In this document: one piece after another, positions 21,405 to 60,893 of the stretch
Layout of the letters: each line of letters starts with the position of its first letter
Position numbering within the stretch: position 1 is the first letter of the stretch
Origin: a virus
Taxonomy: Duplodnaviria > Caudoviricetes
Virus record (IMG/VR): IMGVR_UViG_3300020577_012390
Location: 1 to 64,000 of that record
Strand: one strand, 5' to 3'
DNA length: 64,000 nucleotides
Notes under the pieces: generated by a model
The model's input: only the letters and a program-made list of their open reading frames with translations
The model's database searches: none
Told to the model about the DNA's origin: nothing
Position numbers and translations under genes: made by a program

Positions 21405-21921
21405 ACTCAAGACCCCAAAAACGGAAGAGAAGTCCGCGCTCCTCGACGAGACGGAGTTTCTGGCTGACCTGACCGCGAGGGCGCGGAAGGCACACCTCCC
21501 CCGGTTCGAGCGCCCGAAGTACGCGGACGGAACCCTCCTCGAACCGAGCCTTCCCCCTGACTTGACGATTTTGACCGACACTCAAATCGGTAAGCTCTTC
21601 TCCGAGTTCGCGGCGATGGCTCAGTGGTCCCAGATGCGTCTGGCGGTCTACAACGTCGAGCAGGCCACGAAGAAACGGGTCGAGAAGATGACCCGGGCGA
21701 AGGTTCGGCTGGAGAAGAGCGGTACGAACCAGGACAAGGACGCAAAGGTGGAGATCGACCCCCGCACCAGGGCGGCGGGTTACGAGGCGCTTTTGGGAGA
21801 GGCGATATTCACGATGACGGATGCGGTGCTCCAGGGGTACCTGATCGGTCGTGATGCGTGTTCCCGGGAGCTAACTAGGCGGGGTTGGTCCCGCGAGAAC
21901 TTCGGAGCGCGCGGGCAATGA
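21397..21921 (+). CDS. Hypothetical helical protein
   Basis: GGAGG RBS; ATGA overlap with next gene. Confidence 0.6.
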   Translation: MPKLKTPKTEEKSALLDETEFLADLTARARKAHLPRFERPKYADGTLLEPSLPPDLTILTDTQIGKLFSEFAAMAQWSQMRLAVYNVEQATKKRVEKMTRAKVRLEKSGTNQDKDAKVEIDPRTRAAGYEALLGEAIFTMTDAVLQGYLIGRDACSRELTRRGWSRENFGARGQ

Positions 21922-22205
21922 CCACCGAAAACGTCCAGGAACTCCGTGTGGCCTTCAACACGGACATTCACAGTTTGGCCACCTCGATAATCCGTAACCA
22001 CGACGAGGGGCGCCGGATCTACCTGGCGTGTGTCGGGAGTACGGCGGTCCACCAGGCGATGAAGGCGGTCGCTTCGGTCAACGCGAAGAGCGATGGTCAG
22101 GTGGCCGTGACCCCGTTCTTCGACGAGGTCCGGACCATCGACCGGGAGACGAAGAGGCCGATAGTTTTGACGGCCTTGAAATTCTGGGTTATCTTCGAGA
22201 AATAA
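21918..22205 (+). CDS. spoVS: SpoVS-family (Alba-like) protein
   Basis: LRVAFNTDIHSLATSI...IYLACVGSTAVHQAMKAVA...PFFDEV...TALKFWV parallels the SpoVS pattern LKVSAKSSPNSVAGAL...AIGAGALNQAVKAVA...PAFTDI...TAIKLIV. Confidence 0.7.
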   Translation: MTTENVQELRVAFNTDIHSLATSIIRNHDEGRRIYLACVGSTAVHQAMKAVASVNAKSDGQVAVTPFFDEVRTIDRETKRPIVLTALKFWVIFEK

Positions 22206-40463: not shown

Positions 40464-41640
40464 TCTATCTCCGGCCTTATGGGAAGGTCGATACTTTTCT
40501 CGGGAAAATGGCTCTGGGTTGAAGAGGGGTCCCCCCGTCCGATCACCCGCTTTTAGCGGAAAGTCAAAACCCGAATTACCTACATCCGGGGAGGGAGGGG
40601 GCGGGTTGTCCTACCTGGTAGGATAAGGTGCGAGTTTCTGCCCGGGTAACCCTCTCCCTGGTAGAGGGGCGGGGGCGTTATCCGGATAGCGTTTATCAGA
40701 TAGCGAATAACGTTATCCGGATAGCGGGTTTCCTATCCGGATTGACTATCAGGATAAACGTTTATCAATCGTTGATAAACATTACAAGAACCCACCTTGT
40801 CCTACAGGGTGCGAGTTTCTACTTGGTACCCCGGCGAGGGGGGTGTGGACCCTTGACCAGGTAAAGGTGTCTCGTGTGACCCTACCAGGGACCTCCGGGG
40901 AAGGGTCAACCCCCAGAACCGTTATTAGCGGGGCGTAAAACGGTACAGAACTCGTTTTAGGGGTCGGATGGGGGGTAGGGTGCGGAACGGTCCCGCGAAG
41001 CGTTTTAGGGTCGGTTATATTCGATTACCGAGAATCCATCCCACACTATCCTACCTAAAATTAGAAAGTTTCTAAAACCTATTGCGAGACGTGTCCGGGG
41101 GGTTTAGGTTCTGGTCTACCGAAGTTCAAGCGATTGAATAACGGTACTTGATCCTTCTCAACTAGACGCGGTTTCCACCCTTCGGGGTGGCGCGTCTCAT
41201 ACTGCGACCGGGGTAAGACCGAAACGGACACCACCCCAACCCAGAAACGTAACTGAACGGTACCCCCTTTCACTAGGGGGGCGAGTAAGTAACCAGGTAC
41301 GACCACGCGCGAAACCTGATACTGGGGAATCTCCTATCAAGAGTAGGTTATCGGATATGAGAGTCCGATAAACGAAAGAAAAGATAGGCGCGGTTTGATC
41401 ATTGACAACTAAAACGGAAGTAACGGGGTCTAATCTCAATTACCCCAGAGTGTTCCCCTCTATGAGGGCGTCACACGATAGGAATCACCCTATCAGGGAC
41501 ACACTTCCACCCCACCCATCGGGGTCAGCAGAAGACTAGAGCGGACAGATGGGGGTACCGGGTAAGACCCGGCCAAGCGTAAACGGTAGAGTCTCCTGTT
41601 AGGGGTGCGAAACCACCCCCTGACGTAACGGAGATTCAAA
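40464..41640. other. About 1.2 kb non-coding, lower-GC region rich in palindromes; candidate origin or genome terminus
   Basis: No credible ORF; TATCCGGATA at 40679 and 40714; GTTTATCAA-TCG-TTGATAAAC at 40760-40780; CCTACC-T-GGTAGG at about 40610-40622. Confidence 0.6.
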
Positions 41641-44583: not shown

Positions 44584-44781
44584 TACCCGTGCAAGACCTA
44601 CGACATCCACTTCGAGCCGGTGTACGCGGGGCCCAAGGCGAGCGAGGAGGACAAGGCTTACTGGGAGGCGACCCCGGCGGGGGAGTTCCGGCTGGGGCAG
44701 GTCAAGGAGTCGGTGGCTGCTCTCTACGAGACGGGGGCGTGCTACTACATCGAGACGTCCCCCGTCCCGGCGTCAGCCTTA
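44584..44781 (+). pseudogene. N-terminally truncated fragment of a small phage hypothetical protein
   Basis: Coding-like frame YPCKTYDIHFEPVYAGPKASEEDKAYWEATPAGEF...GACYYIETSP with in-frame TGA immediately upstream and no usable start; ends at TTA 44779-44781. Confidence 0.4.
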
Positions 44782-49403: not shown

Positions 49404-49760
49404 ATGTCAGATTTCACGGTGGAAGAGGTTGCGGCTGAGATCGAGGCGCTGTGCTTCGAGATGTCGGATTTTCTGAAAGAGAAAAACGCTGGATACGGGA
49501 ACTCGGTCTTCGATCCCGTGGCCGTTTTCTCGACCGCGACGGCGGTGGACCGCATCAAGGTCCGGATCGACGACAAGCTGAGCCGGATCAAGCGGGGGAA
49601 GGGCCCAGACGACCTCTCCAGCGAGGACACGAAGAAGGACCTCGCCGGCTACCTGATCCTCTGGTCGGTCTTCGACCGTCTGGAGGCTCGCAAGGCGGCG
49701 ATGGAAGACGAGGAGGTCCGGAAGGCCGAGTCGGTGGTCGCTGCGAAGAAGAAGCGTTTA
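49404..49760 (+). CDS. DUF1599/nucleotide-modification-associated domain protein; ends at TTA
   Basis: EKNAGYGNS...VRIDDKLSRI...EDT..DLAGYLIL; TTA 49758-49760 followed by GGGGAG RBS. Confidence 0.7.
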
Positions 49761-49777
49761 GGGGAGCCTGAAAAACC

Positions 49778-50185
49778 ATGCGCGAAGCTACCTGGGAAGC
49801 GATCCGGAAGCTGGCGAGGGAGGGGAAGGTCCCCGTCATCGAGATCAAGGAAGCCGAGCGCGTGGTGACCCCGCCGCGCAAGCGCGGGCGACCTCGTGTG
49901 GTGGGACCCAAGGGGGAAGTTTACCACTACAAGATGCACACCCCGAACGGTCAACCCATGCAATGCAGGGCGTTTGGGTGCAATTATAAATTCAGGAAGG
50001 ATGAAATCGGTATCGTATGCAGCAACCCGAGCTGCAAGGCGATGTTGATCGAGTATTGCCAGGCCGTTCTGGACGTTTTCTCGGGGAAGATGTCCGCCCT
50101 GGACTTCCCGATGGCGTTCAGGTCTCGCCATGGTAAGAGGATGGCGTCAGGGAAACCGAAACCTCCGCCGAAGAAAAAGAAATGA
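49778..50185 (+). CDS. Basic protein with AT-hook-like KRGRPR and Cys motif
   Basis: CRAFGC...CSNPSC. Confidence 0.55.
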   Translation: MREATWEAIRKLAREGKVPVIEIKEAERVVTPPRKRGRPRVVGPKGEVYHYKMHTPNGQPMQCRAFGCNYKFRKDEIGIVCSNPSCKAMLIEYCQAVLDVFSGKMSALDFPMAFRSRHGKRMASGKPKPPPKKKK

Positions 50186-50699: not shown

Positions 50700-50927
50700 A
50701 TGGCAGCGGCAGCGGGGCGCGGTGCGCCCGATCTCGAAACCTCGAAGAACGTGATGGCCCGGATGCGCGAGATGGCCAACCGCGGCGAGTCCTTCGCCCG
50801 TGGTCAGCGCGGCTTCGCCCGTCAGATGGCTCGTGGCGCGGCCCGCGGTCTCCGCGGCGCGGGCGACAAGGCGAACGCCGCCCTCGTGCGCGACCTCGCC
50901 GCCGCGACCGGCGCGGGCGGCTCCTTA
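50700..50927 (+). CDS. Small Arg/Ala/Gly-rich basic protein; ends at TTA
   Basis: AGGAGA RBS; TTA 50925-50927 lies in the stem of a C(UUCG)G hairpin (CTTACCC-TTCG-GGTAGG). Confidence 0.55.
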
Positions 50928-51106: not shown

Positions 51107-51916
51107 ATGGCGACGGTCTTTTTCTCGGGCGGCATCGACTCCACCACGCTCGCTTTTGACGTGGCGAAAAACCCCTGGAGGTACGGCATCTCTCCGAAGA
51201 CGGAGGATTTCCGCCTCCTGACCGCGTACATGGGGAAGGAGAAGCCGGCCCACCTCGGCAGGCTGGCGACGAAGATCCGCGAAGAGGCCGAGTGGACGGA
51301 GTTCGCCGGGTTCTCCCACGAGTTCGTGGACGCCACGAGTCTATTCGATTTTCAAAAGTCGGATATCCCGCATGGGGGCGCGGGGACGATGACTCCCCTG
51401 TCGACGAAGTACCAGCCGGATCTCCAGTCGATCTCCTACGCGCCGGGCCTCCACACCCTGCTGGCCACCGTGGCGTACAACCGCGAATGGTTCGGTAGGA
51501 GTCTGTCCGCCTTCAGCGACCCCCAGGCGTTTTTCGGGTTCCAATACGACGGCCCGATCTGGAACGAGGTGGACAAGGGGACCGTGACGCCGAACGACGT
51601 CTCCCCCGATTATATCGCGGCCCTGAATACCCTGGTGAGGGTGTCCGGACCCCGTCCGGGGGTGCGGTTCCGTGCGCCGTTCCTGGAGAACCGGATGGAT
51701 CGGGTTCATATCCTGGAATTGGCCATCACAATTGGCGTTCCGCTCACCTGGACGAGTTCCTGTGAGCAGGGGTGGATGGTGAACTGCGGGTACTGCGGAC
51801 AGTGCCTCCGGAGGATGAAGGCGAGTTCGTACCTGGAAGACGCCATGAAGACGTTCTTGAAGAAGCTGGAAGACAAGAAAGCGGCGGAGAAAGCCGCGAA
51901 GAAGGGTAAGAAGTTA
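51107..51916 (+). CDS. Divergent QueC-family PP-loop ATPase; ends at TTA
   Basis: FSGGIDSTTLA PP-loop; SSC-x6-CGYCGQC zinc motif; TTA 51914-51916 overlaps the queC ATG. Confidence 0.7.
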
Positions 51917-52584
51917 TGAAGCCGAAATACACTGTGGTCCTCTCCGGGGGACAGGACTCGACCACCTGCCTGTATTGGGCGCTCGACAAGGGCGTCGATG
52001 TTCAGGCCGTGACTTTCCACTACGACCAGCGCCACGACACCGAGGTCGAGGCGGCGAAGCGGATCGCTGCTCACGCGGGGGTCCCCCACACCGTCCTGGA
52101 GGTCCCCGGCCTCGGGGTTGCGGGGAAGGGGTCGTCCCTCACGCGGGACTTGCCGCTGGACCTCGATGGGGGGTTCCAGGGGCTCCCGTCGTCCTTCCTC
52201 CCTGGCCGGAACCTGGTCTTCCTGTCCCTGGCGGCGGCGTTCGCCATCCCCCGGAACTCCTTCTACCTCGTCACCGGGGTCTGCCAGACGGACTACTCGG
52301 GGTATCCGGACTGCCGGCGGTCGACCATCGACGCGATGGAGAAGGCCATCAACCTCGGTAACGATCTTCACGGCTTCAAAATCGATACCCCCTTGATGCA
52401 CCTGACGAAGGCGGAGACGGTCCGCCTCATGAGGGGGTTCGGGAACCAGGCGTGGGAGGCGCTAGGGATGTCGATCACCTGTTACGAGGGGAAGCACCCG
52501 GGGTGCGGCGCGTGCGCGGCGTGCGTGCTGCGAAAAAAAGGTTTTTCGGAAGCTGGACTTGGTGACCCTGCGGAGGACAACTGA
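51916..52584 (+). CDS. queC: 7-cyano-7-deazaguanine synthase
   Basis: LSGGQDSTTCL, YDQRH, PGRNL, YSGYPDCR, TPLM..TKAE, CYEG...CGACAAC. Confidence 0.95.
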   Translation: MKPKYTVVLSGGQDSTTCLYWALDKGVDVQAVTFHYDQRHDTEVEAAKRIAAHAGVPHTVLEVPGLGVAGKGSSLTRDLPLDLDGGFQGLPSSFLPGRNLVFLSLAAAFAIPRNSFYLVTGVCQTDYSGYPDCRRSTIDAMEKAINLGNDLHGFKIDTPLMHLTKAETVRLMRGFGNQAWEALGMSITCYEGKHPGCGACAACVLRKKGFSEAGLGDPAEDN

Positions 52585-52586
52585 TT

Positions 52587-53168
52587 ATGAAAAGCTACGA
52601 ATCTCTTACGTTCAAGGGTGAGAAGGAAGTCAACGGCCCGGAGGGGTCTTTCGTCATCGTCGAGGGCGAGGACGGCAAGAAGTACAAGATGGTGAGGGAG
52701 GCGCTTCAGTCTCTCGTCGAGGAGACTCAGCCCACGAAACCCCACGGGGCGCGCGGGCTCGACACCTTTCCGGCTCCCTCGAACATGCAGGTGATCGATT
52801 TTCACCTCCCCGAATTCACCTGTCTCTGCCCCAAGACCGGGCAGCCTGACTTCGCGAGTTTCAAGCTCCGCTACATCCCCGACGAGAAGGCGGTCGAGTC
52901 GAAGTCGCTGAAGCTGTACCTCTGGTCGTTCCGCGACAAGGGCTGCTTCCACGAGAAGGTGACGGAGACGATCTACCAGGACCTCCTGACCGCGCTCGCC
53001 CCTCGATGGTTGCAGCTCATCGGGGAGTTCAACGTCCGGGGCGGCATCTACGAGAAGGTGGCGCGGGAGTGGCTGTCCACCGAGCTTCTTTTCGCGGGGT
53101 CGAATGGGCACTCGACCAATTCGCGGACACTCGAACGCCTCGTCGCGAGCTACCGTATCCAGTTTTTA
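52587..53168 (+). CDS. queF: PreQ0 reductase (unimodular QueF); ends at TTA
   Basis: EFTCLCPKTGQPDFA, QueF signature ESKSLKLY, FHE, FNVRGGI; TTA 53166-53168 followed by GGGGAG RBS and the terminase ATG. Confidence 0.9.
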
Positions 53169-53183
53169 GGGGAGCGAAAAACA

Positions 53184-55016
53184 ATGACGATGCCAGCACT
53201 GAGTCCGGCGCCTGAAGAGGTCTTGGAAGGGGAAGGCGCCTGCGATCTGACGAACGAAGAGGTCGCGGACAAGGTGCTGGCCTTCGCGGAAATCTTCTCC
53301 GCGATCAAGCTCTATACCTATCAAAGGCTTTTCGCGTTCCGAATTGTGATGTCTGTGCTCGACAACGACGGCGCCATCATCACCGGACTCTGGGCGCGTC
53401 AGTGCGGGAAGACGGAGACGGTCGCCGCCCTTGCGTTGGCGATGGCTGTCCTCCTCCCCTCCCTGGCGAAGGCGTTTCCGGGGGATTCGAGGTTCCGCCG
53501 CTTCTATAAGGGATTTCTGATCGGGATTTACGCTCCGATTGAGAAGCAGTCCCTCCTCTCGTTCGACCGTATGCGGAAGACCGTCAACCGGCCCACTTCG
53601 GACGATGGGATGGTCCCTGGGGCCAAGGAGATCATGGAAGATCCGGAGCTTGATATCCGGGTTATCTCCTCTCGCGGCGACACGCTCTCGTTCTCGAACG
53701 GGTCGGTCATCATCGCCCGAACGGCGTCCCCCCAGAGCCAGATCGAGGGCGAAACCCACCACATTGTCATTTGTGAAGAGGCTCAAAAACTCTTGCGCTC
53801 GAAGGTCGAAAAGGAAATTCGACCGATGTTGGCCTCGACGAACGGGACGATGGTGAAGATCGGGACCGCCTGGGAATCCCGCGGAGGGTTCCACCAGTCG
53901 ATCCAGCAGAACGTGGATATCCAGAAGACCCTGGGAATCCGCAACCACTTCGAGTTCCCGTACGATATTGTATGCGCTGAAAAACAGCGTTGTTACAACG
54001 AAGAGGCGAAAGCCTACAAGGCGAACCCGGCGGAGAACCCGGCGCCCAACCCGTTCCACCTGAACTACCGCAAGTTCGTGGACAGCGAGATCACCCGCCT
54101 GGGCGGACCCGGGATCGGGACCGAGACGCTGGAGTTCAAGATGAACTTCCGGTGCCTCTGGAACGAGTCCCGGGTCATCGCCATCACCCCCGACGTTCTG
54201 CGGTCGATGGAGGCGAACGACGTCGAGGCTGGGCCGAGGATCGGCGGGTTCATGGTGGCGGGCCTGGATATCGCGAAGACCAGCGACCGGACGGTTCTAA
54301 CGCTTATGGAGGTGGATAAATCCACTCCGCACTTGAACCGGAACTATCTCCCTGGAGCTGACGAAGATAAACAGCTCTATTACTCTAAGACCATCACCGA
54401 TTGGGTGGAGCTGCAAGGGACGTTCGAGGGGAACTCTGGGCAGTATGCGACCCTCTTGAATTACCTTCGCCAGGTGACGATCCAGGTCCTCGTGGTGGAC
54501 ATCACCGGCATGGGCGATCCTGTGTTCGAGCGCATACAGGAGATGGTCGGGGGTGATATCACCTGCGTCCCCTTCCGCTTCTCGAACGCGGCGGTGAAAA
54601 GTCAGCTCTACAAATACTATATGCAGGAGATCCACGCGGGTCGTCTGCGGTTCGCGAATGGGCCGAACACCCGTGCGACCAGGTACGAGCACGCCCGATT
54701 CGTGAAGGAACACCTCGACCTGGACCGGCAGCTCCACGCGGGTTCCGTCGTGTATTTGGCTCCGGAGGGGGAACACGACGATTACCCAGACAGCGCGGCC
54801 CTTGCCTGCTGGGGAGAGAAGGTGTCAGAATCCTCCTCGATGCCTGTTATCCAGAGTTCGTCGGCGCCCCAGGGATGGGGCGGCGCTTCCCGCCGCACGG
54901 CGAGGAGCGGCGACGTATTCTCGTCCTCGTCTTCGATGCCCACCGTCGAGGTCTCAGGGGGCGCGGGTCCGTTGCCGTCTTCTTCGCGTGCCGCTCGGTA
55001 CGCGAGGCGATGGTAA
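53184..55016 (+). CDS. terL: Terminase large subunit
   Basis: ARQCGKT Walker A, ICEEAQ Walker B, KIGT, RNase-H-like GLDIAKTSD...VDITGMGD...HDDYPDS. Confidence 0.9.
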   Translation: MTMPALSPAPEEVLEGEGACDLTNEEVADKVLAFAEIFSAIKLYTYQRLFAFRIVMSVLDNDGAIITGLWARQCGKTETVAALALAMAVLLPSLAKAFPGDSRFRRFYKGFLIGIYAPIEKQSLLSFDRMRKTVNRPTSDDGMVPGAKEIMEDPELDIRVISSRGDTLSFSNGSVIIARTASPQSQIEGETHHIVICEEAQKLLRSKVEKEIRPMLASTNGTMVKIGTAWESRGGFHQSIQQNVDIQKTLGIRNHFEFPYDIVCAEKQRCYNEEAKAYKANPAENPAPNPFHLNYRKFVDSEITRLGGPGIGTETLEFKMNFRCLWNESRVIAITPDVLRSMEANDVEAGPRIGGFMVAGLDIAKTSDRTVLTLMEVDKSTPHLNRNYLPGADEDKQLYYSKTITDWVELQGTFEGNSGQYATLLNYLRQVTIQVLVVDITGMGDPVFERIQEMVGGDITCVPFRFSNAAVKSQLYKYYMQEIHAGRLRFANGPNTRATRYEHARFVKEHLDLDRQLHAGSVVYLAPEGEHDDYPDSAALACWGEKVSESSSMPVIQSSSAPQGWGGASRRTARSGDVFSSSSSMPTVEVSGGAGPLPSSSRAARYARRW

Positions 55017-59083: not shown

Positions 59084-59359
59084 ATGGCCCTAAAAGACGT
59101 AAACCAGATCCCTATCGGGGCCTTCCCTCAACCGGCCCTTTCGGTCGTTCGTCTTCGGGCGGTCCCCGTGGCGACCTCTCCTGCGCAGCCCTCAATCCCA
59201 ACCCCGGCCACCTACAAGATGAGGGGTCGTGATGTTGATTGTGGAACGCTGACTTACCGTTACTGGACCGCTACCGGGTCCCCCGACTATACGGGCGCTC
59301 AGTACGCGGGCGCGAAGTGCGGCGCGAGCCCCCTCGCGGACATAATTCGGATCACTTTA
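59084..59359 (+). CDS. Small hypothetical protein; ends at TTA
   Basis: GAGG RBS; TTA 59357-59359 then an A-rich spacer. Confidence 0.5.
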
Positions 59360-60108: not shown

Positions 60109-60134
60109 TTCGGTTTTTAGAAAGGCCAAAAACG

Positions 60135-60596
60135 ATGATCCACAAGTTCAACTCCTCCTTCTTCGCCACCCGCGTCCAGCGGACCCTCGCCCTCATCGCG
60201 GGGCTCTTCAACCTCGACCTGAACCTGAAGAACGCCCGCAACGTCAAGATCACCATCGAGACGCGCGACGGCCAGGGGATGTACTGCCAGGTCGACTCCG
60301 ACGATGGGTGCGCGCGGTCCACCCCCGACTTCGCGCCGGCTGTCCCCGTCACCTGGACCCCGGGGGCGCTCACGGCGGGCGTGAAGAGCGACTTCTCCGT
60401 CAGCAACGCCGCGGGGGACCGTCTGGTGGCCCGCCTCGTCACCCCCGGAGGCAACCCGGCGGACTACTACGTGGCGACCCGCGTGGACAACAGCAACGTG
60501 GCGGTGACCGCCTACAAGCGGACCTCCCCCGGCGCGGCTGCTGTCGTCGAGACCGGGGACACCTCGACGGTCGAGGTCGCGAACCTCAAGCAGTTA
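60135..60596 (+). CDS. Putative virion decoration protein, paralogue; ends at TTA
   Basis: TRVDNSNV...DTSTVEVANL; TTA 60594-60596. Confidence 0.55.
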
Positions 60597-60614
60597 TTCA
60601 GAAGGCCAAAAACG

Positions 60615-60893
60615 ATGAAACTCCTCAAAAGCCAGGGCGTCTCGGTGACCACTTCCGCTGCGGCGGCGTGTGCAGCTTCGGACGTCCAGGCGGACACGAA
60701 GAGCGTGGTCGTGCAGGCCAACCCCTCGAACACCGCCGTCATCTACATCGTCAACGCCTCTTCGGTGGCGAAGACCGAGGGGATCATCGTCGCGGCCGGC
60801 GCGTCGGTCACCCTGGACGTCGCGGACCCCTCCGCGCTGTTCTTGATCTCGGACAGCGGAACCCAGAACGCGCGTATCGCCCAGCTCGGTTGA
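60615..60893 (+). CDS. Small beta-rich putative virion protein
   Basis: VVVQANPSNTAVIYIV; fused to the previous gene under the standard code. Confidence 0.6.
   Translation: MKLLKSQGVSVTTSAAAACAASDVQADTKSVVVQANPSNTAVIYIVNASSVAKTEGIIVAAGASVTLDVADPSALFLISDSGTQNARIAQLG

Follow-up and report, generated by a model that had tools for sequence, protein, structure and literature searches.

UUA, a leucine codon elsewhere, ends translation in the mitochondria of labyrinthuleans and the plastids of peDinoflagellates, and this use of the codon has been linked to a change at Ser204 of a bacterial-type release factor 2 (RF2) (PMC12574857). Here we describe the same codon at the boundary between two genes of an uncultured phage, IMG/VR record IMGVR_UViG_3300020577_012390, an 85,395-bp sequence with a CheckV completeness of 92%, the first 64 kb of which (64,000 nucleotides) form the window analysed. 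Within this window, an open reading frame (ORF) at 52587-55016 appears to fuse QueF, a preQ0 reductase, to TerL, the large terminase subunit, and a lone in-frame TTA lies between the two. We conclude, with a probability of about 0.85, that the apparent fusion represents two separate genes and that UUA most likely ends translation of QueF.

The UUA-stop organelles (NCBI table 23, Thraustochytrium/labyrinthulean mitochondria, and peDinoflagellate plastids) share several features with this phage: UUA is absent inside genes, occupies the positions of homologues' stops and is used alongside the standard stops in a bacterial-type translation system (PMC12574857). The phage differs from them as a tailed phage of a bacterium, with 61% GC and with no release factor in its own genome. 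In phages with recoded stop codons, such as crAss-like and Lak phages, TAG or TGA is read as an amino acid. There as here, standard gene callers misannotate the genome and return wrong gene lengths; the change proposed here would instead run from sense to stop, leaving genes falsely fused or over-long rather than fragmented, and the phage carries neither a tRNA nor a release factor.

Two further systems invite comparison. The A1 protein of phage Q-beta arises by programmed read-through of one stop between adjacent in-frame genes. The QueF-TerL junction likewise has one frame, a single terminator-like codon and a defined longer product upon read-through; unlike that arrangement, its frame is not kept in relatives, no stimulatory structure or fused homologues are found, and TerL is served by a start signal of its own. 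Phage 7-deazaguanine modules, as reportedly described by Hutinet and colleagues in 2019, consist of FolE-QueD-QueE-QueC and an optional QueF, plus DpdA. In agreement with this scheme, a motif-complete QueF ends a queC-queF block in the window, which together with a TGT-like gene predicts DNA modification of the preQ1 type. The difference lies in the neighbour, as queF directly precedes terL here and in three relatives (L001-L003).

The QueF-TerL junction

Under translation table 11, the ORF is open over 809 codons and stops at TAA (55014-55016); codon 194 (53166-53168) is its sole in-frame TTA. The junction reads CAG TTT TTA GGG GAG CGA AAA ACA ATG, in which the TTA, GGGGAG (53169-53174) and ATG (53184) share a frame, as the initial annotation had stated, and its estimates of 22, 68 and 90 kDa agree with the predicted masses of QueF (22.0 kDa), TerL (67.6 kDa) and the fusion (90.2 kDa). 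On the plus strand, queF spans 52587-53165 (193 codons), followed by the TTA (53166-53168) as its putative terminator, a 15-nt spacer (53169-53183) and terL (53184-55016; 610 codons with a TAA stop). The TTA was assigned from the sequence, the gene model, the coding score and the stops of relatives, and the spacer, in which GGGGAG and CGAAAAACA form the terL initiation signal, from a survey of start signals.

All ten relatives identified through TerL in IMG/VR (37-59% identity) carry a standard stop 1-21 codons before the TerL match. The gene directly before TerL is QueF in L001, L002 and L003, and a degenerate QueF-like gene in L011; L002, also referred to as G001, is a complete relative of 81,362 bp. 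This queF-terL order (L001:2761-3900, L002:4040-4537, L003:4996-5937, L011:461-958) accompanies TerL identities of 52-64%, and in all four relatives QueF ends with TGA, 20-25 residues past a conserved RGGI. Only two of the four, L001 and L003, have the pair in a shared frame, interrupted there by TGA, and the other two do not, so that retention of the frame in related phages, a point raised by the initial annotation, did not hold. The conserved feature is the gene order, in which the deazaguanine module closes with QueF, next to TerL. The L011 copy lacks the CPKTGQPD catalytic segment and reads ICAFTYEPDF; judged from its sequence, it may be inactive.

Both partners have the features of complete, independent proteins. 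The upstream product is predicted to be a stand-alone, unimodular and NADPH-dependent QueF with all signature motifs. It matches PF14489 over ORF residues 87-160 (106 bits, cut-off 27.3) and aligns over residues 67-154 with the 165-aa QueF of B. subtilis, whose structure is solved (4F8B), with LCPKTGQPDF, ESKSLKLY and FHE common to both and ungapped. These segments contain what we take to be the catalytic cysteine (in CPxTGQPD), the QueF motif E(S/L)K(S/A)hK(L/Y)(Y/F/W) and the His-Glu pair. After RGGI, 39 residues lead up to the TTA, compared with 36 residues in 4F8B. The best 120 QueF homologues are 117-152 aa long, and the phage protein has 193 aa if TTA ends it or 809 aa if it does not.

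The downstream product matches PF03237 (Terminase_6N) over ORF residues 270-419 (about 27.9 bits, cut-off 22). Its Walker A motif is GLWARQCGKTET, in which R-Q-x-G-K-T is kept in 6/6 aligned TerLs, and the acidic positions D362 and D532-D533 are conserved in the TerL alignment; no match was found among PDB sequences. The predicted TerL begins with MTMPALSPAPEEVLEGEGACDLTNEEVADK, and this start is matched by homologues: M1 of the L003 protein aligns with M199 of the ORF, and the start of P0122, the closest TerL outside the lineage (67% identity), aligns with residue 200 of the ORF, one after M199. A search spanning 5.8 billion protein clusters yielded the best 120 TerL homologues. Apart from P0002, described below, these comprise stand-alone proteins 525-605 aa long, forms that carry an intein, another insert or a C-terminal extension, and a single 357-aa fragment. 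Several homologues of 830-950 aa (P0150, P0156, P0160, P0182, P0186, P0189, P0196, P0206 and P0233) contain Hint/intein and homing-endonuclease domains, and P0235 and P0213 have an insertion just past Walker A (GKT).

The fused protein has two entries in public protein sets, P0001, from the JGI gene caller, and P0002, a 762-aa protein from a Logan assembly. P0002 falls in the same 90% cluster as the ORF, with the TerL part 99% identical and the QueF part ~83% identical, and this conservation shifts sharply exactly at M199, as it would for two genes under unlike constraint. Its junction is RIKILGARKTMTMPAL, compared with RIQFLGERKTMTMPAL here, and retains both the leucine and the frame, as far as a protein sequence alone tells. 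No close relatives were found in the collections that could be scanned: an exact DNA pattern returned nothing from IMG/VR, and the metagenome scan gave no relatives above 58% identity.

The initiation signal of terL is typical for this genome. A Shine-Dalgarno-like motif precedes 64 of the 105 modelled starts, and an AAAAA/AAAAC run lies within 14 nt of 16 of the 105 (49778, 65327, 66851 and 73759, for example). The composite of GGGGAG and GAAAAACA before terL is also found at other starts, such as GGAGAAAAACATC-ATG at 66851. The minimum free energy of the junction RNA is -27.5 kcal/mol, whereas shuffled sequences average -32.7 kcal/mol (z = +1.5); this lack of extra structure is expected for an open initiation site. 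A start signal made up of GGAG or GGGGAG and then an AAAAAC run, placed shortly ahead of the ATG, recurs at 16 of the 105 starts, probable virion genes included, in the window at 49758-49780, 53166-53186, 60117-60137 and 60594-60617, and in the coordinates of the full record (G000) at 65312-65329, 66836-66853 and 73744-73761.

TTA at gene ends across the genome

Genes were modelled with a simple, codon-usage-based scheme in which TTA is taken as a fourth stop. The resulting 105 genes end with TGA (52), TTA (38), TAA (10) or TAG (4), with one running off the contig end, and many of them begin in a TTATG overlap; the count of zero interior TTA in this model arises by construction. The in-frame TTA of standard-code ORFs sits only near their 3' ends. 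Past the TTA, the codon-usage score drops below zero in the frame just read and rises above zero in that of the next gene, unless the two happen to share a frame.

We then compared the record with the whole sequence of G001, a genome with standard stops. In ~15 cases, a TTA-ended gene has a G001 orthologue that closes with TGA or TAG 0-4 residues from the TTA, and the alignment halts at the TTA, so that reading through it would append up to 165 residues with no G001 counterpart. Two genes, at 80569 and 77878, are exceptions in appearance only: the G001 stop comes right after the residues that match those before the TTA at 80569, and at the same junction at 77878. No TTA-split gene pair matches one continuous G001 gene. 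The data thereby show the gene boundaries, the equivalence of TTA to the TGA or TAG of relatives, and the lack of in-frame TTA within genes that have an orthologue for comparison. Because 38 modelled genes end at TTA and no gene with a comparable orthologue has one in its interior, the lone TTA exactly between the QueF and TerL domains is not a matter of chance. In G001, in-frame TTA is limited to about two sites in real genes, both of them away from gene ends, which indicates that TTA was already nearly unused in this phage group.

The shared frame of the two genes carries no such signal. The next gene on the same strand within 150 nt is in frame at 7 of 31 TTA ends and at 9 of 45 TGA ends; together with the two of four relatives in frame, this places the QueF-TerL frame at chance level. 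The shared frame is thus an accident, without demonstrated function. At five TTA junctions (25369; 47374, minus strand; 53166; 60594; 77878), the two genes share a frame without a standard stop between them, so the description of this junction as a natural read-through reporter is logically right, although the site is not special in that respect.

The TTAA palindrome is absent from the record (0 observed, 46.6 expected from trinucleotides) and is absent or nearly so in G001 (1 copy), L001, L003, L006 and L010, a pattern suggestive of escape from a restriction system that cuts at TTAA; none of the TTA gene ends is followed by A. TAG is scarce on the coding (plus) strand of the window (148 observed, 365 expected), whereas its complement CTA is not (379 and 383).

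Competing explanations

The reading as two genes, already put forward as most likely in the initial annotation, is well supported by the stops of relatives, the lengths of homologues, the ribosome-binding signal and the genome-wide behaviour of TTA. Several observations weigh against termination at UUA. The fused protein is recorded both by the JGI gene caller (P0001) and in the Logan assembly (P0002), although these records mirror only the use of the standard code. The count of 38 TTA ends rests on our own gene model, in which a few short genes (44620-44781, 50700-50927 and 59084-59359) and the TTA-TGA tandem at 51914 are uncertain. The phage yielded no tRNA or tmRNA, a six-frame search found no RF-1 or PCRF domain, and the Pfam scan of 79 window proteins contained no translation factor, the last 21 kb of the record being covered by the six-frame release-factor searches alone. 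For the host, TerL scans of genome contigs returned nothing usable, only a fragment of 32% identity in a Bathyarchaeia metagenome-assembled genome.

Among the alternatives, a +1 slip fares best, although it too is very unlikely. At CAG TTT TTA G, tRNA-Phe is able to re-pair on UUU one base on while the rare UUA awaits decoding, which would bring UAG into the A site at once; QueF would then end at a standard stop, and UUA itself would be no terminator. A G follows the TTA at 14 of the 38 ends, which is also where the account stops: an immediate +1 stop is present at only 14 of the 38 sites, the others staying open for 4 to 306 codons, and at most TTAG sites the preceding codon is unable to re-pair (AAG TTA G, for example). 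Of the features of a prfB-type frameshift, UUU-UUA-G fits the slippery P-site codon and the slow A-site codon, and no Shine-Dalgarno-like stimulator lies upstream. As a general mechanism, frameshifting to a nearby stop is therefore ruled out by the 14/38 count; a slip leaves the genome-wide pattern unexplained, and nothing calls for a separate mechanism at this junction.

A true fusion, in which UUA encodes leucine and a functional or abundant 90-kDa QueF-TerL ties preQ1 synthesis to the packaging motor, has still slimmer prospects. It draws on the frame that is open under table 11, on the near-identical P0002 with the same frame and leucine, and on the conserved QueF-TerL order. Against these stand the TGA between the genes of four relatives, only two of which are in frame, and the own ribosome-binding signal and homologue-matched start of TerL. 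Decoding TTA as leucine would furthermore lengthen other proteins by as many as 165 out-of-frame residues, which are missing from the G001 orthologues, and TTA junctions are in frame no more often than TGA junctions. Outside the P0001/P0002 cluster, no QueF-TerL fusion occurs among the best 120 TerL homologues or among the long QueF-containing proteins (444-1416 aa, n = 269), the best 120 of which, as listed, are fusions of QueF to bacterial FGGY sugar kinases, P0002 excepted.

Leaky read-through that could link modification to packaging was suggested in the initial annotation. In one version, UUA would be a genuine stop that a few ribosomes pass at this junction, making some 90-kDa QueF-TerL that brings the last preQ1 step to the packaging motor, at a level set by the supply of UUA-reading tRNA. 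We regard this as just as improbable as the true fusion. A coupling of modification to packaging finds no support in a frame at chance level that two of four relatives keep, in the lack of any fusion outside the lineage, or in the RNA: folding against shuffles revealed no stimulatory structure of the read-through type 3' of the TTA, and no Rfam families were found in the window.

Least probable is an artefact, whether the T5 run has gained one T and should read CAG TTT TAG or a TGA with a modified guanine was miscalled with T in its place, since the homopolymer, the TGA at this position in relatives and the deazaguanine genes with their probably modified DNA are outweighed by a pattern that tracks the reading frame, as no sequencing error does, by undepleted TGA (817 window copies; 379 TGAA against 0 TTAA), by the lack of a motif flanking TTA sites, by TTATG overlaps that removal of a T does not repair, and by P0002, a separate assembly whose sense codon (Leu) and same frame argue against a private sequencing error. 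The TGA counts, the zero TTAA, the missing flanking motif and the frame-following pattern rule out a blanket miscall of TGA as TTA, and a homopolymer error suits this junction only, not the TTATG overlaps or P0002.

Proposed release at UUA and genome context

For termination at UUA, we infer from these sequence patterns that the ribosome releases the chain at this codon. Translation of QueF would begin at ATG 52587 and halt at UUA 53166, and TerL would be started on its own or by re-initiation at AUG 53184, through GGGGAG and GAAAAACA in the 15-nt spacer. Since the phage encodes neither a release factor nor a tRNA, the factor would be supplied by the host, and an RF2-type factor with widened specificity could end chains at UUA. 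By analogy with the organelles, we take this as the most likely mechanism, at somewhat less than even odds. The Ser204 change in RF2 is the only documented UUA-stop mechanism that we found (PMC12574857). Three phage proteins point to a bacterial host, namely the primase and helicase, both of bacterial type, and the GH25 muramidase. A diverged SpoVS-like gene at window 21885-22205 (PF04232, 36.7 bits) belongs to a family seen in Bacillus, Thermus, Deinococcus and Thermotoga among 14 control genomes, and is too diverged to indicate the host.

The junction itself is ordinary, consisting of two neighbouring genes, yet it is a clean instance of a leucine codon at stop positions; in the literature searched, no phage or bacterium was reported to use UUA or any other sense codon for termination. 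If the host release factor does read UUA, no earlier sense-to-stop change of the code would be on record for a free-living cell. Standard-code callers have meanwhile deposited what is most likely a false 809-aa QueF-terminase (P0001, P0002), and about one third of the genes of this phage will be over-extended by such callers. The products of the junction are well separated in mass (22 and 68 versus 90 kDa), with IQFLGER as a diagnostic peptide, and the four other in-frame junctions are equally usable.

Upstream of queF lies queC (51916-52584, plus strand), whose TGA ends 2 nt before the queF ATG; it was assigned from Pfam (QueC), the gene model and a G001 orthologue with 53% identity. Pfam tallies of the window proteins further include DNA polymerase A, DnaB, DnaG, RecA, FolE, QueD, QueE and GH25 lysozyme, which cover replication, recombination, deazaguanine synthesis and lysis. 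The set of FolE, QueD, QueE, QueC and QueF with a TGT-like gene predicts that the phage DNA is probably modified. A QueC-like paralogue precedes queC and ends in AAG AAG TTA TGA, which overlaps the ATG of the following gene (TTATGA, window 51914-51919); a standard stop comes right after this TTA, so the site does not discriminate between the two readings. Between two gene blocks, a ~1-kb stretch at window 40560-41640 is devoid of a convincing gene and rich in TTA and repeats (TTATCCGGATAGCG, GTTTATC/GATAAAC), and could be an origin or control region.

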